A stretch of DNA of 64,000 nt from Planctomycetaceae bacterium (GTDB lineage Bacteria; Planctomycetota; Planctomycetia; Planctomycetales; Planctomycetaceae), in contig DNUF01000128.1 in the NCBI GenBank assembly GCA_003508595.1, positions 21,069 through 85,068 of the forward strand, given 5' to 3'. Under the pieces are notes generated by a model. That model saw nothing but the letters and a program-made list of their open reading frames with translations. It was not told the DNA's origin and did no database searches. Shown in pieces: positions 2,862 to 64,000 of this stretch; positions within the stretch are counted from its first letter, which is position 1, and each line of letters opens with the position of its first letter. Position numbers and translations under genes: made by a program.

Positions 2862-3722
2862 ATGAAAACGATCCTGATCCAGCTCGACACCGATCCCCTT
2901 CCCAGCACGTTCGACCGAGTTGTGGCGGTCGATGCCGACGTCGACCATCTTTTCAGCTATGGCGGAGTGACCCCCGAACAGGTGGAACCCCTGGTCCACG
3001 GCGCGATGTTCACCCGCGGCCCAAAAGACCTCAAGCACACCGCGATCTTCATTGGGGGCAGCAACGTTGCCGCGGGGGAACAACTGCTGGCGAAGGTCCA
3101 GAAGGTGTTTTTTGGCCCGGTGCGGGTCTCGGTCCTGATGGACTCGAACGGTTCAAACACAACCGCCGCAGCCGCGGTGCTGTCGGCACGCAAGCACCTG
3201 ACCCTGTCGGGTTGTGAAGCGGTGATCCTCGCCGGAACCGGCCCCGTCGGCCAGCGTGCTGCCCAGATTCTCGCCTCCGAGGGAGCCCGCGTCCGCGTTG
3301 CCTCACGATCTCAGGCCCGCGCAGCCCAGACCTGCGACGCCATTCGAGCTGTGGTTCCCTCAGCCCAACTGGTCCCGGTCGCTGCCGGGAATGCCGCCGA
3401 AACCCGCACCGCCTGCGAGGGTGCCACACTGGTGATCGCCGCAGGTACTGCCGGCGTCGAGTTGCTCTCGGTCGAAACCCGTGCGCAACTGCCGGCGCTC
3501 AAGGTGGCCATCGACCTGAATGCCGTTCCTCCGGCGGGAATTGCCGGGGTCGAGGTGTTTGACAAAGGAACCGATCGGGGTGGCGTCGCCTGCTATGGTG
3601 CCATCGGTGTCGGGGGTTTGAAGATGAAGATCCACAAGGGGGCGATCCGCCAATTGTTCGAATCGAACGATGCAGTCCTCGACACAGCTGCCATCTACCA
3701 ACTGGGACTCGACCTCGTCTGA
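2862..3722 (+). CDS. NAD(P)-dependent methylene-tetrahydromethanopterin dehydrogenase (MtdA/MtdB/MtdC family)
   Basis: 286 aa. It has a Rossmann motif (LAGTGPVGQRAAQIL) and N-terminal similarity to the Mtd family (IQLDTDP, FIGGSN). It lies adjacent to fae. I cannot tell the A/B/C subtype by eye. Confidence 0.75.
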   Translation: MKTILIQLDTDPLPSTFDRVVAVDADVDHLFSYGGVTPEQVEPLVHGAMFTRGPKDLKHTAIFIGGSNVAAGEQLLAKVQKVFFGPVRVSVLMDSNGSNTTAAAAVLSARKHLTLSGCEAVILAGTGPVGQRAAQILASEGARVRVASRSQARAAQTCDAIRAVVPSAQLVPVAAGNAAETRTACEGATLVIAAGTAGVELLSVETRAQLPALKVAIDLNAVPPAGIAGVEVFDKGTDRGGVACYGAIGVGGLKMKIHKGAIRQLFESNDAVLDTAAIYQLGLDLV

Positions 3723-3753
3723 CCGAGGGAGTTGCCTCACAGTTGCGCAGCAA

Positions 3754-3788
3754 AACAGGGACGGGATCCAGCTGATCCCGTCCCTGTT
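3754..3788. terminator. bidirectional hairpin terminator between convergent genes
   Basis: Perfect 15 bp stem AACAGGGACGGGATC (3754-3768) / GATCCCGTCCCTGTT (3774-3788) with a 5 nt loop. T-rich sequence follows on the plus strand (TCTTTCG) and on the minus strand (TTTG). It sits between the mtd-like stop (3722) and the S51 peptidase stop (3905). Confidence 0.75.
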
Positions 3789-3904
3789 TCTTTCGAATTC
3801 AGACCCCGCCTTTCCGACATCAACTGGCGGAGTCCAACTGGTCGCGTTCGATGCAGTCCTCATCAACAGGGCGTGTCCCAACTGCGATCATTTCGCAGCC
3901 CCGT

Positions 3905-5779
3905 CTACTCACAGACGAGAGGGGGAGTGGAGACCTCAATCGTTTCCTCGTCAGCGGCCTCATCCACAGCCACGAATGCCCGGCGGGATTCGCGAAGGTC
4001 ATCATCCGAGTTGACAGAACCGACCCTCGACCGCTCGAGCAGGTGATAACGATCGTCGGCCAGCAAGACTTCACAATCTTCTTCACTCTGCTGCTCGGTA
4101 TCCATCATGTCGAAGACCGAGACGCGGTTGAATCCGAAGACATGCATCTCTTCCCCCCGAATCACCAGGGCGGTCGATTCGTCGAGGCCCAACCCCAGCA
4201 ACTGGGGATGCAACCGCTTGAGGTGAGCCATGTCACCCCTGCGATTCCGTTGTGAAAAATAGGGGTCGACAGCCGTTCCGGGAAGCAACCCCAATCCATC
4301 TTCATATCCCTCTCCGATCACATGCCGATTGGAGACCGGATTGCCACGGACCAGGTAACTGGCCAGGACCGAGGCACCGGCGGCAGAACCGCCGATCGCC
4401 CCATCCCGCCGCAGAAGATCCCGCAACTGCTGGTGGACCAGTGTGTCTTCGAGGGCATCCATCACCCGCCACTGACGGCCACCGGTGAACCAGACCCCCC
4501 CCGCCTGCTCAAACATCTCAGCGACCTGAGGATCATTCGCCTGCTGCCGGTCCGCGAGGTGCAGGCAGAGTGTATTGGTGGCACCGGCCTCCTTGAGGAA
4601 ACGGACTGTTTCCTCGCTGTCTGGAGGCGCATCTCCCGAAGCGGTCGTGATGACAATGATCAAACCCTGCGGACCACCAGAATGTTCGATGAATCGTTCG
4701 ACGGCATCCCGGGGAATCTCACCTCCCCCGGCAAGAACCACCGTCCCCTGGGGAAGACCCTTTTCATGCACAGGATTGGGGTCGGGCAACCGTGGATTCA
4801 GACGACGACTGGCCGATCGGGCCAGGGCCAGAAGGTCCACCTCATCCCCCGGTTGCAGCAATTCGGTCCGGGGAGATTTCTCACCGGTCCCGGCCAGGCA
4901 AGTCATGACCTGGGAATCGGATTCATCGAGAACCACCATCTTCCGCCCCTGAACGACCAGAGTCGTTCCCTCATCAATGCCCAGTCCCACGAGCTCGGGG
5001 AAGTTGCTGAGGGCATTCAGCAGCCGATCCTGACGATGCCTTTTCAGAAAGTGCTGATCCACGACCGTACCCGGCAGGAACCCAAACCCGCGATCGAGTT
5101 CGGGCTCGGGATTGCCTCCCTTGATCATCACTTGCGACATGATGGCCGCACCGGCGGAGGTACCACCAATCACTCCGCCTCGTTCGAGAACCTTCCACAA
5201 CTGCCGCTCAAAGCGGGTGTCGAGGTAGGCTTCAGTGAGGCGCGATTGATGACCACCGATAAACCAGACGGCGGTGGCGTTTTCCAGGGGGAGGCAGAAC
5301 GCCTCGGAGTCGGCTACGTCACGCTCACGGGTATGCAGGAAACACAAGTCCTGGAGCTTCAGATTTCGGAAGGGTGCGATCCGGGGTTCGACCTCGGGGG
5401 TGTCGGCCGTTTCGCTGGCGGTGGTCACAACGACCAGACGGCAGCGATCTCCACCACCAAAATCGACAAAACGCTCCAGAGACGCTTCCGACAGCCGACC
5501 CCCTCCCGAGATGAACAAAGTTCCCGTCACCGGGCGGGCAGGATCCGCCTGAAGGGTCGAGCGTCCCGAAGCAATCGCCGCAACCGCCGGTTTGGATCCG
5601 GCTGGATTCGCACCGATCACATTCGATCGGGGAACATTCGATTGAGCCAGCAATACTCCCGGTACCACCGGCAGGTAAACCAGGGTCCACATGAGGGACC
5701 TCCAGATACTCTGGGTGAAACCCCGTCCCGTGGGGTGTGGCAGGCTTCCTTGCCTGTACAGCAGTTTGTGTGACGTCAT
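3905..5779 (-). CDS. secreted protein with two tandem cyanophycinase-like peptidase S51 domains
   Basis: Two repeats of the S51 pattern: GGG...(V/I)TTAS...WF(I/T)GG...GG(T/S)(S/A)AGA. Domain 1 has GVIGGTSAGAAI and domain 2 has GAIGGSAAGASV. The N-terminus is hydrophobic and signal-like (MWTLVYLPVVPGVLLAQS). The start is ambiguous between ATG 5779 and ATG 5692. Confidence 0.75.
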   Translation of the reverse strand: MTSHKLLYRQGSLPHPTGRGFTQSIWRSLMWTLVYLPVVPGVLLAQSNVPRSNVIGANPAGSKPAVAAIASGRSTLQADPARPVTGTLFISGGGRLSEASLERFVDFGGGDRCRLVVVTTASETADTPEVEPRIAPFRNLKLQDLCFLHTRERDVADSEAFCLPLENATAVWFIGGHQSRLTEAYLDTRFERQLWKVLERGGVIGGTSAGAAIMSQVMIKGGNPEPELDRGFGFLPGTVVDQHFLKRHRQDRLLNALSNFPELVGLGIDEGTTLVVQGRKMVVLDESDSQVMTCLAGTGEKSPRTELLQPGDEVDLLALARSASRRLNPRLPDPNPVHEKGLPQGTVVLAGGGEIPRDAVERFIEHSGGPQGLIIVITTASGDAPPDSEETVRFLKEAGATNTLCLHLADRQQANDPQVAEMFEQAGGVWFTGGRQWRVMDALEDTLVHQQLRDLLRRDGAIGGSAAGASVLASYLVRGNPVSNRHVIGEGYEDGLGLLPGTAVDPYFSQRNRRGDMAHLKRLHPQLLGLGLDESTALVIRGEEMHVFGFNRVSVFDMMDTEQQSEEDCEVLLADDRYHLLERSRVGSVNSDDDLRESRRAFVAVDEAADEETIEVSTPPLVCE

Positions 5780-58455: not shown

Positions 58456-59223
58456 TCACGGCTGCGGCGATCGGCCGGTGTCGGTTTCATCGGCCGGCTG
58501 TGCGCCCGAGCCCGGTTTTTTGGCCGTCAAAGGGGACTCGACCGGTTGCGAAACCTCGACCACCAATTCGACTCCCCGGTCATCCTCAGGCTCGTAAGCA
58601 AGCCCGTACTTCGCCGGGTCAAACCAGAACCGGGCCATCAAGACCAGACCCCGCGCCCCATCAAACAGCTCGATTCGTGCCGGAAAAGACAACTGCCGCG
58701 TTTCCCCCCGCAGCGTGAGATCACCCCGAATTCGATGATTCTCGAAATCACGCAACTCACCCGATTCGAGACTGTTGAAGGCGGGAGCCACGTTGTTCGC
58801 GAAAAAGCCAATCAGCCGAAAATGCTCCACATCGAGTCCATCCCGGGATTTCAGTTGCTCGACCAGTTCGGCAGCCTTCGATTCGAGAGAGTCCGAATCA
58901 ATTTCCAGGTCGATTCGCTTCACCGAGATCCGGTTGTCGGTCAGGGTGACGATTCCATGAAACTGTCGAAACTCGGCCCAGACCTTCTCTCCGTCTTCAT
59001 TCGTCAGCATCACGCCGATCCGGGTGTTCGCCGGCGTCAGCCTGGCAATCCCCTCGTCGACCGTGATCGGGCGCATCTGGTCGGGAGTCAACAACGTCGC
59101 CCCCACCACCTCAGGCGGAGAGGCCTTCGGACCAGGCACCGGCGTGGGGGTGCAACCGACTCCCCAGACCAATCCGGCGAGCAAGACCCAAACCCAATCG
59201 CTGTGCTGCATCCTCTTGGACAT
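58456..59223 (-). CDS. YceI-like lipoprotein
   Basis: Lipobox-like LVWGVGC after a short signal. The C-terminal part (FHGIVTL...IDLEIDSDSLESK...IRGDLTLRGETRQLSFPARI) matches the YceI family. I used the ATG at 59221-59223. Confidence 0.7.
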   Translation of the reverse strand: MSKRMQHSDWVWVLLAGLVWGVGCTPTPVPGPKASPPEVVGATLLTPDQMRPITVDEGIARLTPANTRIGVMLTNEDGEKVWAEFRQFHGIVTLTDNRISVKRIDLEIDSDSLESKAAELVEQLKSRDGLDVEHFRLIGFFANNVAPAFNSLESGELRDFENHRIRGDLTLRGETRQLSFPARIELFDGARGLVLMARFWFDPAKYGLAYEPEDDRGVELVVEVSQPVESPLTAKKPGSGAQPADETDTGRSPQP

Positions 59224-59536
59224 CGTTCTGGCGTTCACTCGAGTTTCTCACCGTCCCCCCTGCGGCTTCCATCCCCCCTCGGGCACGACACAACCCCAGC
59301 CAGCCAGGCGGGATATCACACCAGGTCCCCAACCGTGTATTTCCGTCACCGCAGACACTCTCACCATAACCCCGGTTCGCACACGAGTGATAGTGCGAAA
59401 CGGCAAAAACTCGGCGATCTCCGGCAGGTGCCGTCGGCACCATCCTGCCAATCGAAAACCTCCTTGCACCTCCGCCCCACTCTGTGGAGAATTCTTTCCA
59501 CTGGACTCTCCCCTGGAAACGGAAGCGGCGGCACAC

Positions 59537-61513
59537 GTGACGGATCGACTGGCGGAACTCAACCCCTCGCAACGCGAGGCGGTCACCACTCTCTCGGGCC
59601 CCCTGCTCGTTTTGGCGGGGGCCGGTTCGGGCAAGACCCGCGTCATCACCTATCGGATGGCCGAGTTGATCCGCAGCGGCATCCAGCCCTCCCGCATTCT
59701 GTCGGTCACCTTCACCAACAAAGCGGCCCGCGAGATGCAGGAACGGGCCAGCAAGCTGCTGGGCAAGTCCCGCGGCGAACGCCCCCTGGTCGCCACCTTC
59801 CACAGCCTCTGCGTCCGCATTCTGCGTGAAGAAATCGCCGCGCTCGGCTACCCCACCAGTTTCACGATCTACGACCGGGGTGACCAGGAATCGACGGCCC
59901 GCACCGCCCTGCGCGACATTCGCGTCTCCGAGAAATCGATGAAGCCGGGCGACCTGCTGGCGATGATCAGCAAGTGGAAGGGGGCCGGGATCTCTCCCGA
60001 GCAGGCCCGCGATGCCGTCGATGGCGATCTCGAAGCCCTCGCCGCCGCCGGCTACCGCCGTTATCAGCAGGGAATGAAAGCCGCGGGAGCCGTCGACTTC
60101 GATGACCTGCTCTACCTCACCGACCGCCTCTTCACCACCTCTCCCGAGCTGCTCGCCCGGCACCAGCAACGGTTCGACACCGTCCAGATCGACGAGTACC
60201 AAGACACCAACGGTCTGCAGTTCCGCCTCATCGAGGCACTCGTCCGCCCGCATCACAACATCTGCGTCGTGGGGGATGACGACCAGGCGATCTATGGGTG
60301 GCGCGGGGCCGAAGTCCGGCACATTCTGTCTTTTCCCCAGCACTTCCCGAACACGAAGGTGATTCGCCTGGTCGACAATTACCGCTCGACCGCGCAGATT
60401 CTGTCGCTGGCCAACCAGTTGGTCACGCACAACCGCAACCGGCACGCCAAGCAGTTGCAGGCGCACAAGGACGGCCCGCTGAGCGTGAAGATCAAGGAGC
60501 ATCCCGACGAAGGGACCGAGGCGCTCGATGTGGTCCGCGAGATTTCATTTCTGATCAGGCAGAAGGGGGTCGCGCCGGGAGACATTGCGATTCTCTTCCG
60601 CACCAACGATCAGCCCCGCGCGTTCGAGACCGAGCTGCGTCGGGCCCAGGTGCCGTATGTGCTGCTGGGCAGCCAGTCGTTCTTCGACCGGCGCGAGATT
60701 CGCGACCTGCTGGCCTACATGCGGGTCTGCAGCCGGCCGGAAGACGAAATCCCCCTGCTGCGGATCATCAACGTCCCCCCCCGGGGAATCGGCGCCACCA
60801 CGATCGAGAAACTCGTGGGCCGGGCGCAGAAGACGGCACAGCGACTCTGGAACACCATGCCCCCGGCACTGCAGGCGGGAGAGCTGGGCCAGGCAGCCGG
60901 GAACGCCATCTCGGGGTTCCGCACCCTCATCGAGAAGTACCGCCGGCAGTTTGCCGAGAATCCCCGGGCGCTCAGCACGACGCTCGAAAAGCTCATCGAC
61001 GAGATTGGCTACCATGGCGAGATCGAGAAGCAGTACGAGCAGGCGACGCAGCAAGAACTGCGGAGGACGATGCTGGGGGAACTGGTGACGGCGGTGCGGC
61101 AGTACGAATCGCGTGCGACGCACCCGACGCTGCACGGCTTTTTGCAGGAGACCTCACTGGGGGGTCGGGAAGACGAGCCCGACAAGGACGACAAGCTGCA
61201 GGCCGAGGGGGTCAAGCTGATGACCCTGCACAGTGCGAAGGGGCTGGAGTTTCCGCGGGTCTACCTGGTGGGGATGGAAGAGGGGCTGTTGCCGCACAAG
61301 CGGTCGACCAGCGAACTGGCGGGGGACGTCGACGAAGAGCGCCGGCTCTGCTACGTGGGGGTCACGCGCGCCCGCGAGTTCCTCACAATCTCGCGTGCGC
61401 AAACCCGCATGAAATGGGGCAAACCGCGCGTCTGCCAACCCTCGCGCTTCCTCTTCGAAATGCAGGGCCTGCCAGTCCCGCCTCAGGTTTTGATGGGTGA
61501 TGACCGCAGGTAG
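59537..61513 (+). CDS. ATP-dependent DNA helicase, UvrD/PcrA/Rep family
   Basis: LNPSQREAV, LAGAGSGKT (Walker A), TFTNKAA, DEYQDTN, GDDDQAIYGWRGA, YRS, TLHSAKGLEF and YVGVTRAR appear in canonical order. I chose GTG 59537 as the start because no ATG lies between the YceI-like gene and motif Q. Confidence 0.85.
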   Translation: MTDRLAELNPSQREAVTTLSGPLLVLAGAGSGKTRVITYRMAELIRSGIQPSRILSVTFTNKAAREMQERASKLLGKSRGERPLVATFHSLCVRILREEIAALGYPTSFTIYDRGDQESTARTALRDIRVSEKSMKPGDLLAMISKWKGAGISPEQARDAVDGDLEALAAAGYRRYQQGMKAAGAVDFDDLLYLTDRLFTTSPELLARHQQRFDTVQIDEYQDTNGLQFRLIEALVRPHHNICVVGDDDQAIYGWRGAEVRHILSFPQHFPNTKVIRLVDNYRSTAQILSLANQLVTHNRNRHAKQLQAHKDGPLSVKIKEHPDEGTEALDVVREISFLIRQKGVAPGDIAILFRTNDQPRAFETELRRAQVPYVLLGSQSFFDRREIRDLLAYMRVCSRPEDEIPLLRIINVPPRGIGATTIEKLVGRAQKTAQRLWNTMPPALQAGELGQAAGNAISGFRTLIEKYRRQFAENPRALSTTLEKLIDEIGYHGEIEKQYEQATQQELRRTMLGELVTAVRQYESRATHPTLHGFLQETSLGGREDEPDKDDKLQAEGVKLMTLHSAKGLEFPRVYLVGMEEGLLPHKRSTSELAGDVDEERRLCYVGVTRAREFLTISRAQTRMKWGKPRVCQPSRFLFEMQGLPVPPQVLMGDDRR

Positions 61514-61568
61514 GGTCTCTGTCCCGTAGATGCCAAACTGCGCATTCACCATCCCCGGCACCGGACCC

Positions 61569-62650
61569 CAATGTGCCCTCGCCCGAGGAGACCTACCTCG
61601 TGGGACCAAACTCAGGACGACGGGAGCGCGAACCTCTGTGTTCGCCCCCCGCTGGGGTTTCACTGGCAGATAACGGTCTTTGGGAAGCCAGACATCTTTG
61701 CCGGCACTAACGGTCGATGTGACACCGTGCGATCCGTTTTTGTCGCGGCGAACGCGGCTGTTGGCCGGGGTTTTTGGACAAACTCACACGGCGAACTGGT
61801 TTGACTCACAGGCTAAAAGCCTGTTCCACGACGAGAGAGCCTGCTCCACAATGCGGCCGAAAACCTCAGACCTGAATCGGAAACCAATGTGCCCTCGCCC
61901 AAGCAGACCGTCCTCGTGGGACCAAACACAGGACGACGGGAGCGCGAACCTCTGTGTTCGCCCCCCGCTGGGCGGTCGCTGGCAGATAACGGTCTTTGGG
62001 AAGCCAGACATCGTTGCCGGCACCTACCGTCGATGTGACACCGTGCGATCCGTTTTTGTCGCGGTAAACGCGGCCGTTGGCCGGGATTTTCGGACAAACT
62101 CACACGGCGAGCGGTTTTGACTCACAGGCTAAAAGCCTGTTCCACGACAAGAGAGCCTGCTCCACGGTGCGGCCGAAAACTGAGACCTGAATCGGAAACC
62201 AATGTGCCCTCGCCCGAGCAGACCGCCCCCATGGGACCAAACACAGGACGACGGGAGCGCGAACCTCTGTGTTCGCCACCCGCTGGGGTTTCACTGGCAG
62301 ATAACGGTCTTTGGGAGGCTGCACCTCGTTGCCGGTGCAACTGGTCGATGAGACAAGCTGCGATTCATTCGAGCCGTGTTTGTGGCGGTAAACGCGGCCG
62401 TTGGCCGGGGTTTGGGACAAACTCACACGGCGGGCGGGTTTGACTCACAGGCTAAAAGCCTGTTCCACGATTCGGGAAGCTGGACATCGTTGCCGGCACC
62501 CACCGTCGATAAATACCGTGCGATCCGTTCGAGCCGTTTTTGTCGCGAAGAACGCGGCCGTCGGCCGGGGTTTTGGGACAAACTCACACGGCGGGCGGGT
62601 TTGACTCACAGGCTGAAAGCCTGTTCCACGACACGAGAGCCTGTTCCACC
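61569..62650. repeat. tandem array of a ~315 bp non-coding composite unit (3 full copies plus 1 partial)
   Basis: Units start at 61569, 61885 and 62200 (periods 316 and 315 bp). A partial fourth copy at 62471-62650 contains only the second half of the unit. Copies 1 and 2 differ at roughly one position in twelve by my manual alignment. Every copy keeps the hairpins GCGAAC-CTCTGT-GTTCGC and ACAGGCT-AAA-AGCCTGT. Confidence 0.9.
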
Positions 62651-62654
62651 AAAG

Positions 62655-62689
62655 GACGTGGCGACACACCGCAAGGTGGCCGCCACGTC
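62655..62689. terminator. hairpin between the repeat array and the Dabb gene (possible bidirectional terminator)
   Basis: 9 bp arms GACGTGGCG (62655-62663) / CGCCACGTC (62681-62689). Pyrimidine/T-rich TTCGTTCTCC follows on the plus strand. It lies 40 nt downstream of the Dabb stop on the minus strand. Confidence 0.4.
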
Positions 62690-62728
62690 TTCGTTCTCCT
62701 CTCTCCTCTCACCCGACTCCTCTCTGCG

Positions 62729-63040
62729 TCACCCCACTTCCGAATCGAAGACCCGCACCTGCTTCCAGCCGGGCTTCGATTCGGTGATGAACTGCTGGTG
62801 CCGGGGGTGCGCCTGGTAGGCGTCGTGCGACGCCATCGAGTCGAAGACCACGTGCAGGGCGACGTCGAACGCCCGGTCATTCACCGGGCGGGCCAGCGAG
62901 GGACACAACACCCCCGCGCTGTAATACACCACCCCGTCATGCCCCTTCAGGTACTTGTCACACGCCGCCACCTGGCGCTGGCAAGACTCGGGTGAGTTGT
63001 CGTTCAGAGCGAAAAAGACGTTGTGAACCACGTGAGGCAT
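62729..63040 (-). CDS. Dabb (stress-responsive alpha/beta barrel) family protein
   Basis: 103 aa from ATG 63038-63040. MPHVVHNVFFAL...GHDGVVYYSAG...FDVALHVVFDSMASHDAYQAHPRHQQF matches the Dabb domain pattern. Confidence 0.75.
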   Translation of the reverse strand: MPHVVHNVFFALNDNSPESCQRQVAACDKYLKGHDGVVYYSAGVLCPSLARPVNDRAFDVALHVVFDSMASHDAYQAHPRHQQFITESKPGWKQVRVFDSEVG

Positions 63041-63080
63041 GTCGAAAACTTCCGGAAGAAGCACAAGAAACAGCAAGAAC

Positions 63081-63103
63081 GCAACGGCCCCCAGGCCGGT
63101 TGC
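63081..63103 (-). terminator. imperfect hairpin between the RT stop and the Dabb start (weak terminator/attenuator candidate)
   Basis: GCAACGGCC / GGCCGGTTGC arms with one bulge. On the minus strand it is followed by T-rich GTTCTTGCTGTTTCTTGTGCTTCTTCC, which runs into the Dabb start. Confidence 0.25.
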
Positions 63104-63194
63104 CGCGAACGCACGCCGTCGATCACGGCTGCCCGGACAACAGAGACTGTGTCACTCGGGTCCGCCGGGTCGCGATCGGCACGCCCCAAGATCT

Positions 63195-64000
63195 TTAACG
63201 GTTCCAGTCGATCTGTTCAAACAACGCGAGCAATTTCGCCCCGCGCTGGCTGTTCAGGCTGGTGACAAACGCAATCCGGCCCCGCAGGTGACTGGCAAAC
63301 TCGGGATGTCGCTCGCGATTCTGCGACGTCGGACCGTACTGGATGCAGTTCTTGAGCGTCGCCTTGAGCCGGTCGTAGTCCTCCCGGCGAATGTTCAATT
63401 TCGAATTCACCACCACCCCGGTCACCCGCTGCCGTTGCGACGCCCGCTGCACAGCGGTCTTTCGCGAGTTCAGCCGAAACTGTTCCTGCGCCACAATCTG
63501 CCGGACCAGGGGGAGAAAAACGGCGAGACTGCGCTGGAAGACCTCGCCGCCCGAAAAGGTCAGATCGTCGGCATACCGCGTGTACTGGGCGTTGAAGCTG
63601 CGGGCCAGCCCCGCCAGGCGCAGGTCGAGCACAAACGCCGAGAGGTTGGCCAGTGCGGGTGACGTGGGAGCTCCCTGGGGCAGATGTCGCCGCAGATAGC
63701 GGGTTTCGGCAACGTCGCTGGGACGCCCCGCCTCCCAGAGATTCGGGGGAACGGCCGTGGTCACCAGCCGGGCGAGCCAGATCGCCGCCTCACGCGAGTA
63801 GCCCAGGCTGCGGAAGATCGCCGTCACCCGGGGATAGGTCACGCTCGGATAAAAATTCTCCAGGTCGAGCTTCAGCAACACCCGCTGGCCAACATGCGGC
63901 TGGGCATTCGTCTGGATCGAACGCCCCGTGACAAATCCGTGGGCGGCGACATGGGGAGGAATGCGACCGAGAATCTCGGCCAGAATCTGCTGCTGCACCC
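63195..64000 (-). CDS. retron-type reverse transcriptase (N-terminus outside window)
   Basis: The ORF is open to the window edge. Motifs in order: NAQPH (NAxxH), LKLDLENFYPSV, RHLPQGAPTSPALANL, YTRYADDLTFSG (YADD box) and SQRQRVTGVVVN (VTG motif). TAA stop at 63195-63197. No maturase or endonuclease tail. Confidence 0.8.
   Translation of the reverse strand, partial: VQQQILAEILGRIPPHVAAHGFVTGRSIQTNAQPHVGQRVLLKLDLENFYPSVTYPRVTAIFRSLGYSREAAIWLARLVTTAVPPNLWEAGRPSDVAETRYLRRHLPQGAPTSPALANLSAFVLDLRLAGLARSFNAQYTRYADDLTFSGGEVFQRSLAVFLPLVRQIVAQEQFRLNSRKTAVQRASQRQRVTGVVVNSKLNIRREDYDRLKATLKNCIQYGPTSQNRERHPEFASHLRGRIAFVTSLNSQRGAKLLALFEQIDWNR

Follow-up and report, generated by a model that had tools for sequence, protein, structure and literature searches.

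The 64,000-nucleotide (nt) stretch of Planctomycetaceae DNA analysed here (GenBank assembly GCA_003508595.1, contig DNUF01000128.1, positions 21,069 to 85,068 of the forward strand), hereafter referred to as the window, ends at its right edge inside a gene for a reverse transcriptase (RT) of the retron kind. Downstream of this gene lie a Dabb gene, a non-coding tandem array and a convergent helicase gene. Retrons are now seen mainly as tripartite, toxin-antitoxin-like systems of phage defence, and their effector-less clades stay unexplained. In this study we examine which kind of RT is encoded at the window edge, which RNA precedes its gene in related genomes, and how the resulting element compares with the retrons described to date.

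The reverse transcriptase gene at the window edge

The stop codon of the RT gene is located at 63195-63197 and the minus-strand open reading frame (ORF) is still open at nt 64000. Translation, profile matches and comparison with relatives identify the segment 63195-64000 (minus strand) as the 3' part of the gene, comprising codons 164-430 of a 430-amino acid (aa) protein, i.e. its C-terminal 267 residues, with the remaining 163 codons beyond the edge. The closest database protein, P0001, has 430 aa and is 99% identical across the 267 in-window residues, and its V164 corresponds to the GTG at 63996-63998, showing this codon to be internal. P0001 is carried by L001, a 3547-nt Logan assembly contig from another sample, which is colinear with window positions 62604-64000 at 99.07% identity across 1397 nt, window nt 64000 corresponding to L001 nt 2151. 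L001 was used as a proxy for the 2.1 kb past the window edge; in it the RT ORF is intact and the full gene spans 1664-2956.

The motifs of the protein, all encoded on the minus strand, were located by translation. From the N-terminal side these are NAQPH (63894-63908, full-length residues 194-198), the NAxxH motif of retron region X; LKLDLENFYPSV (63840-63875); RHLPQGAPTSPALANL (63642-63689); YTRYADDLTFSG (63549-63584), with the catalytic YADD box at 63564-63575 (residues 305-308); and SQRQRVTGVVVN (63405-63440), with the VTG triplet of region Y, in RT7, at 63417-63425 (residues 355-357). NAxxH, located between RT2 and RT3, and VTG have been described as hallmarks of retron RTs (Mestre et al. 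2020, PMC7736814). Aligning 30 full-length relatives also supports the placement of NAQPH, YADD and VTG, with residues N194, A195, P197 and H198 of NAxPH invariant, likewise the YADD box and G357 of region Y, and V355 nearly so. Only 69 residues separate VTGVVVN from the stop codon, and they contain no maturase X, endonuclease or fused effector domain. The original prediction, made from the letters of the window, had described an ORF open to the edge, a probably internal GTG, these motifs in this order and a C-terminus free of maturase X and endonuclease regions, and our results agree with it on each count.

At their N-termini the Planctomycetaceae RTs have an amphipathic helix in common (MGLFxWLxRLF). 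Behind it, some 45 arginine-rich residues form a linker for which disorder is predicted (predicted local distance difference test, pLDDT, <50). C-terminal to this linker, residues 60-135 are confidently folded in the AlphaFold2 model described below. Residues 1-135 of P0001 are encoded at L001 1664-2068, past window nt 64000, and no equivalent of the first ~90 residues exists in the Burkholderia relatives, in the actinobacterial relatives or in the retron RT Ec86.

A retron RT by profile, sequence and predicted fold

The only Pfam match of the in-window protein is RVT_1 (E=1.3e-16), a palm domain common to the RTs of group II introns, diversity-generating retroelements (DGR), defence-associated or unknown-group systems (DRT/UG) and abortive infection (Abi) systems, so that on this match the gene could belong to any of these families or represent a decayed remnant. 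More specific profiles separate these possibilities. The PADLOC model RT_other matches the window fragment with E=5.9e-115 and the full-length RT with E=1e-134. For the latter, RT_other ranks first with 448 bits (residues 42-429), followed by RT_outgroup (427), RT_XIII (362) and RT_III-A (263), and every PADLOC match listed is a retron RT model. The typed NCBIfam retron models Ec67, St85 and TIR match below their cut-offs. The NCBIfam group II maturase model TIGR04416, which has a cut-off of 300 bits, scores only 36.6; Drt2 and Drt3a, at 34.7 and 17.3 bits, respectively, likewise remain far under their cut-offs.

A sequence search of the PDB gave the same result, in that all 14 matched chains are retron RTs, with Ec86 at the top (E=1e-34). 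The AlphaFold2 model of the RT, built from 30 relatives, has a mean pLDDT of 82.4, and its 18 best Foldseek matches are again retron RTs (Ec86: E=3e-21, TM score 0.71-0.73 normalised to Ec86). Group II RTs (1e-10), DRT2 (1e-9) and DGR RTs (1.7e-8) follow, with Abi RTs lower still, i.e. the matches to these four families are at least 11 orders of magnitude weaker than those to retron RTs.

The RT at the window end is a retron RT by profile, sequence and predicted fold, as the original prediction had proposed over a group II or DGR assignment; the profile classification that it called for places RT_other and RT_outgroup best. The genomic context is in keeping with this. There is no X/maturase or endonuclease domain in the protein, no intron RNA was identified by Rfam in L001, L005, L051 or the window, and no direct-repeat pair of at least 45 nt resembling the template and variable repeats of a DGR was found in 15 kb of L002, an 88%-identical relative of L001, and the same search, applied to the final 10 kb of the window, picked up the non-coding tandem array and nothing else. 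A decayed remnant is disfavoured by the intact ORF in L001 and by the constraint on the gene between L001 and L002, for which the ratio of non-synonymous to synonymous divergence (dN/dS) is 0.14 with dS of 0.90 and only 50% identity at four-fold degenerate sites. Of the features named in the original prediction as speaking against a retron, group II intron RNA and a DGR repeat pair were thus searched for and not found, and a truncated gene is not what L001 shows; we regard an RT of another family, or a remnant, as extremely improbable.

A covarying non-coding RNA upstream of the RT gene

The original prediction had placed the upstream side of the gene, where a retron would keep its non-coding RNA (ncRNA), outside the window, and it is there that a structured RNA with a1/a2 repeats was found in L001 and its relatives. 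In L001 the RT start codon (position 1664) is preceded by a 535-nt intergenic region. Within it, a 172-nt ncRNA was delimited by inverted repeat, fold and covariation at 1441-1612, on the same strand as the RT gene, from whose start it is separated by a 51-nt spacer. A sigma-70-like promoter recognised from sequence (TTGACC, 16-nt spacer, TACATT; 1406-1433, RT strand) ends 8 nt before the closing stem. The 19-20-nt inverted repeat (1441-1460 and 1593-1612) encloses ~130 nt and is found again in L002, and the fold of the segment departs from that of shuffled sequences by z=-4.7. The ncRNAs of L001 and L002 share 92% identity, compared with 62% for the upstream flank and 25% for the spacer to the ATG, which also carries a 98-nt indel.

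Using the L001 segment as a query, nhmmer identified the element in 45 further loci (E<=0.01), in all of them on the RT strand and just upstream of the RT gene. An alignment of 43 ncRNA sequences (A3) was built with MAFFT without regard to structure, and four helices were agreed by the individual minimum-free-energy folds: P1, the 20-bp closing stem of a1/a2 type; P2, a hairpin of variable length; P3, an invariant hairpin (CUGCGGGGUUACCCCGCGG); and P4, a 17-bp hairpin of variable sequence that resembles an msd. In A3, 81.4% of the cells expected to be paired are so; sliding the 3' partners by 1-3 columns lowers this share to 39-45%. Double-sided changes occur in 45 of the 57 pairs. The covariation score of 0.362 (slid controls: 0.09-0.14) was reached by none of 500 shuffles. 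As an example, one pair of P1 occurs as GC in 13 sequences, AU in 12, CG in 8, UA in 8 and UG in 2, and is never broken.

A covariance model built from A3, R1, scores 109-177 bits in Planctomycetaceae loci and finds the ncRNA upstream of the RT gene in all Planctomycetaceae relatives for which the upstream sequence is long enough, including loci outside the training set (L015, L044, L046, L083, L085, L087, L089-L091, L095 and L096). Weaker matches were obtained in Acidobacteriota loci, one Pirellulales and one Pseudoduganella locus (24-55 bits), on a Burkholderia megaplasmid (42 bits) and on a Dietzia plasmid (25 bits). All of these distant matches are directly upstream of a related RT gene and on its strand, and they retain a CAAG motif, the GGGGUUACCCC hairpin and a GUUG motif. 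The RNA is most simply read as transcribed in the direction of the RT gene, since R1 scores far higher on the plus strand of L001 than on the minus strand (146.6 and 35.3 bits, respectively) and P1 contains many U-G pairs. No Rfam 15 family matched the ncRNA in L001, L005, L051 or the window. R1 has no match in the window either, because the ncRNA would sit past its edge: if the window continues colinearly with L001, it is to be expected ~540-710 nt beyond nt 64000, on the minus strand.

Two further features of the region concern transcript ends. In many sequences a T-rich tract follows the 3' arm of P1 (L001 1613-1621; A3 columns 211-219). In addition, a terminator-like hairpin is present between the ncRNA and the RT start (L001 1616-1638), so that the ncRNA and the RT mRNA may be made as one transcript or as two.

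Proposed msr-msd organisation and reverse transcription

By analogy with characterised retron ncRNAs, whose layout it shares, the upstream RNA would be the msr-msd of a retron, because it combines, beside the RT gene, a terminal a1/a2 stem with 5' hairpins that are conserved and a 3' hairpin whose sequence varies. The inner end of this stem carries "two opposing G residues" in retron ncRNAs (Mestre et al. 2020, PMC7736814), and a G is usual both as the branching nucleotide and as the base that is reverse-transcribed first (Khan et al.). In A3 two such residues, G45 and G190, are common to all 43 sequences; in L001 they correspond to G1461 (context CAA-G-C), at the inner end of P1, and the opposite G1592 (context G-UUG).

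On this analogy, the RT would bind the msr hairpins and use the 2'-OH of the invariant G at L001 1461 as primer, template copying would begin at the G opposite (L001 1592), proceed backwards across P4 and probably end close to the AU-rich CAUUGU tract behind P3, reverse transcription tending to terminate before an AT-rich tract (Khan et al.). In A3, the end of P3 and the opposing G lie 75-84 nt apart (median 81), and a branched multicopy single-stranded DNA (msDNA) of ~70-85 nt is therefore predicted. Synthesis of msDNA, its branch point and its length are all proposed here by analogy with characterised retrons.

The conserved RNA could instead act as a cis-regulatory leader of the RT gene or as a stand-alone small RNA, the RT then acting on other substrates. 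Such a role would be compatible with the status of the msDNA as a prediction in this lineage, with a CAA context before the candidate branching G that differs from the usual TTA, and with the U-rich tract found behind the closing stem in many sequences. It does not account, however, for an RNA laid out in the manner of a retron, with a long terminal stem, conserved 5' hairpins, a long covarying 3' hairpin of variable sequence and two invariant opposing G residues at the inner stem end, that lies just upstream of a retron-type RT gene and co-occurs with it in Planctomycetota, Acidobacteriota, Pseudomonadota (Burkholderia, Pseudoduganella) and Actinomycetota (Dietzia). A leader or small RNA is accordingly given very little credence here, and an msr-msd is preferred.

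Neighbouring genes and the search for an effector

On the 3' side of the RT gene, 154 nt past its stop codon and on the same strand, the window carries a gene for a 103-aa stress-responsive alpha/beta barrel (Dabb) protein (62729-63040, minus strand; Pfam PF07876, E=8.8e-14). It is followed by a non-coding tandem array at ~61555-62650, with a unit of ~316 nt present 2.8 times (88% matches) and another half unit besides, which occupies the space between the Dabb gene and a convergent UvrD-type helicase gene. Neither the Dabb protein nor the array had been considered a known type of retron effector in the original prediction, and the comparison with other loci bears this out. The Dabb gene adjoins the RT gene only in L001-L003 and in none of the 79 other loci compared, and its product has no PADLOC match; the array is recognised neither by R1 nor by a family of Rfam, and a methyltransferase gene is found in its place in L002. 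The helicase gene itself, of UvrD/PcrA type (window 59024-61513, plus strand), is convergent to the RT gene in the window and likewise in L002.

No effector of the described retron types (I-XIII), fused or adjacent, was found in the neighbour Pfam lists examined. The recurrent neighbours of the RT gene are of housekeeping type rather than defence genes: a divergent M50 peptidase gene preceded by one-carbon transfer genes (Fae, Mpt_N, ATP-grasp) in ~20 loci, MutL downstream of the RT in ~12 loci, and saccharopine dehydrogenase plus ornithine decarboxylase in ~9 loci. DNA-repair genes recur near the retron in relatives (L090, L091, L004-L006), which may be plain synteny.

Commoner beside the RT gene than M50 peptidase or MutL is a membrane protein of ~225 aa, encoded directly 3' of the RT gene and on the same strand in ~31 of 55 Planctomycetaceae loci, often at a gap of 2-15 nt (e.g. 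L085 7307-7984, L087 7295-8017 and L091 7314-8060, besides ~28 other loci), with mutL often next. It is marked by the motifs MPDQELFxIIHPGPP and GWxCYxLAIxQYLIIGLVTSRDKALDVL, has neither a Pfam nor a PADLOC match, and belongs to a family of 433 matches confined to Planctomycetes. Several of its members are named "DNA topoisomerase I" by NCBI, in what looks like an annotation error.

This distribution raises the possibility of a tripartite retron with the membrane protein as effector, which would resemble a type IV retron with its two-transmembrane effector, and from which the lineage of the window would have lost or relocated the gene, or replaced it with Dabb. The close spacing on one strand, an adjacency commoner than that of the RT gene with the M50 peptidase or MutL genes, the restriction of a domain-less family to Planctomycetes and the persistence of the adjacency in L009, despite a changed orientation, are all in its favour. 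The membrane protein gene is nevertheless missing from the whole 64-kb window and from all the Acidobacteriota, Burkholderia and actinobacterial relatives that keep RT and ncRNA, and it stands beside mutL with neither RT nor ncRNA within 4 kb in L097 (2838-4687) and L098, so that an obligatory partnership is weakened. Its divergence correlates weakly with that of the RT (Spearman 0.29), it matches no PADLOC model, and the supposed replacement, Dabb, is confined to L001-L003 and likewise has no match there. We therefore consider a membrane protein effector unlikely; ncRNA and RT are the only universally conserved unit. In L097 and L098 three small ORFs with no recorded Pfam family take the usual place of the RT gene. 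The lineage of these two loci is abundant, the membrane protein being found in 37 blocks of the collection.

Distribution and mode of inheritance

A scan of the genome collection returned at least 592 confirmed loci in species-representative genomes. The best 80 of these span Planctopirus, Gimesia, Schlesneria and Planctomicrobium; the Planctopirus carrier is a cultured strain, P. hydrillae JC280 (locus L051), and the carriers in the other three genera are metagenome-assembled genomes. No relative of the RT above 38% identity was found in IMG/VR or in GenBank phage records, and the nearest plasmid-borne relatives, on Burkholderia megaplasmids and actinobacterial plasmids, are 43-48% identical. 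One actinobacterial record, Tsukamurella tyrosinosolvens "plasmid 5" (NZ_LR134447.1; L093), encodes a related RT (3713-4987, 43% identical) between polA and rpsA; it is labelled a plasmid, but its gene content looks chromosomal. R1, which finds the ncRNA in Burkholderia and Dietzia, gave no convincing match in this record.

Compared over one set of genome pairs, mean identity is 60-61% for the RT, 64.5% for MutL and 42% for the M50 peptidase. Pairwise identities of the RT and of its neighbours correlate weakly (Spearman 0.25-0.41), except with saccharopine dehydrogenase (0.88, from only 8 loci). Because RT identities are compressed into 50-65% in this comparison, the test supports slow evolution and is not proof of vertical descent. 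Taken with the setting, the element is likely to be a long-resident, vertically transmitted chromosomal one, vertical descent not being proven.

Overall interpretation and possible functions

In our assessment the window very probably ends in a bona fide retron, made up of an RT and an upstream ncRNA and belonging to an untyped, effector-less group, that of the PADLOC models RT_other and RT_outgroup. Several points weigh against this interpretation. The main caveat is that the ncRNA, the promoter and the first 163 RT codons are read from L001, which is 99% identical to the window and derives from another sample. The membrane protein gene that follows the RT gene in over half of the Planctomycetaceae loci leaves room for an ancestral system that was not a strictly stand-alone one. 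Before the candidate branching G the sequence reads CAA and not the common TTA (Khan et al.), and no report of msDNA or of a retron function in Planctomycetes was found in the literature searched. A 2026 metagenome survey of the SPIRE collection placed Planctomycetota RTs in type XIII, mostly at low confidence. Finally, the equation of RT_other and RT_outgroup with RT clade 11 of Mestre et al., discussed below, is drawn from the taxa that score highest and from published taxon distributions.

As to function, phage defence with an unlinked or unrecognised partner is a plausible role, though short of a likely one; defence is here only an assumption, because setting and evolutionary rate resemble those of a vertically inherited chromosomal gene. 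Somewhat less probable, and put forward tentatively, is that the element has been domesticated as a vertically inherited chromosomal gene, in which ncRNA and RT, and hence msDNA, are kept for a non-defence cellular function with no linked toxin. It has been suggested before that some vertically inherited retrons might serve such functions (Mestre et al. 2020, PMC7736814). Pointing towards domestication are an RT whose conservation, over shared genome pairs, is close to that of MutL, the low dN/dS and an ncRNA conserved between L001 and L002 where synonymous sites are near saturation, neighbours of housekeeping type and the lack of close relatives in IMG/VR or phage records. The adjacency of MutL in relatives and the UvrD-type helicase gene in the window may, speculatively, hint at a link with DNA repair.

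For the window itself, these results establish a real RT in an element cut by the edge, to which the Dabb gene and the array do not belong. More broadly, they describe one effector-less lineage, composed of an RT and a covarying ncRNA, that is widespread in Planctomycetaceae, under strong purifying selection and situated among housekeeping genes. It constitutes a concrete and possibly culturable system for asking what an effector-less retron does, and the covariance model R1 allows annotation of its RNA.

Comparison with known retrons

Retrons have been classified into 11 RT clades and 13 effector-defined types, and stand-alone (msr-msd)-RT cassettes are known besides from clade 11 and from one branch of clade 2 (Mestre et al. 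2020, PMC7736814). The RTs of Tsukamurella, Dietzia, Burkholderia and Acidobacteriota related to the one described here score highest with RT_other (470-535 bits) and RT_outgroup, RT_XIII falling 149-237 bits below RT_other, and their phyla are those reported for clade 11 and clade 11-A. From these top-scoring taxa and the published taxon distributions, RT_other (PDLC02949) and RT_outgroup (PDLC03740) most probably correspond to the clade 11 group, of which the Planctomycetaceae RT, as judged by its scores, is a somewhat more distant member.

The closest solved structure is that of Retron-Eco1 (Ec86, type II-A3; 7V9U/7V9X), with which the RT shares its fold and the aligned motifs NAxxH, LPQGAPxSPxLANL, YTRYADDL and VTG. 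The two proteins are only ~29% identical, and Ec86 lacks ~90 N-terminal residues, its residue 47 aligning with residue 140 here. The branching G of the Ec86 msr is preceded by TTA, whereas the candidate G here follows CAA. Ec86 also has a nucleoside deoxyribosyltransferase-like effector as partner (Mestre et al. 2020, PMC7736814). The Ec107-like stand-alone retrons of the clade 2 branch resemble the present element in being (msr-msd)-RT cassettes without a recurrent accessory gene; however, their RT is distant (the RT_Ec107-like model scores 199 bits with the full-length RT, against 448 for RT_other), and their lineage is 93% Bacillota and 91% host-associated in the SPIRE survey.

Type XIII retrons (clade 10: Mx162, Mx65, Ne144 and Sa163 of myxobacteria) likewise have a long RT with an N-terminal extension, a long a1/a2 stem and evidence for vertical inheritance. 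A divergent, Mx162-like member of this type, with its SWIM and HEAT/ARM partners elsewhere in the genome, would fit RT_XIII as third-best PADLOC model (362 bits) and the 26 type XIII candidates that the SPIRE survey counted in Planctomycetota, a phylum in which 56% of the retron candidates were of low confidence. RT_other and RT_outgroup nevertheless exceed RT_XIII by 65-87 bits, a lead for RT_other of only 87 bits, which may be the reason for the type XIII label in the survey. No SWIM Zn-finger, DprA-like or HEAT/ARM gene was present in any neighbour list examined, and the ncRNA is common to the Burkholderia, Dietzia and Acidobacteriota RTs, for which the margin over RT_XIII is far wider. Membership in type XIII is thus very unlikely.

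The stand-alone retrons of clade 11 (PMC7736814) offer the nearest match, since they share what is most probably their own profile, RT_other, as best match, an ncRNA directly upstream of the RT gene and the absence of a recurrent known effector, and since the ncRNA with CAAG and the GGGGUUACCCC hairpin also occurs in the Burkholderia, Dietzia and Acidobacteriota relatives with the same best profile. The Planctomycetaceae form differs in its lower RT_other score (448 compared with 470-535 bits in the actinobacterial, Burkholderia and acidobacterial members), in a VTG triplet where Burkholderia and actinobacteria have LAG, in its own N-terminal MGLFxWLxRLF helix and arginine-rich linker, and in the lineage-specific membrane protein that often follows the RT. 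With these distinctions, the element is best filed as a Planctomycetaceae-wide, clade 11-like member of the described stand-alone retrons, and not as a new kind of system.

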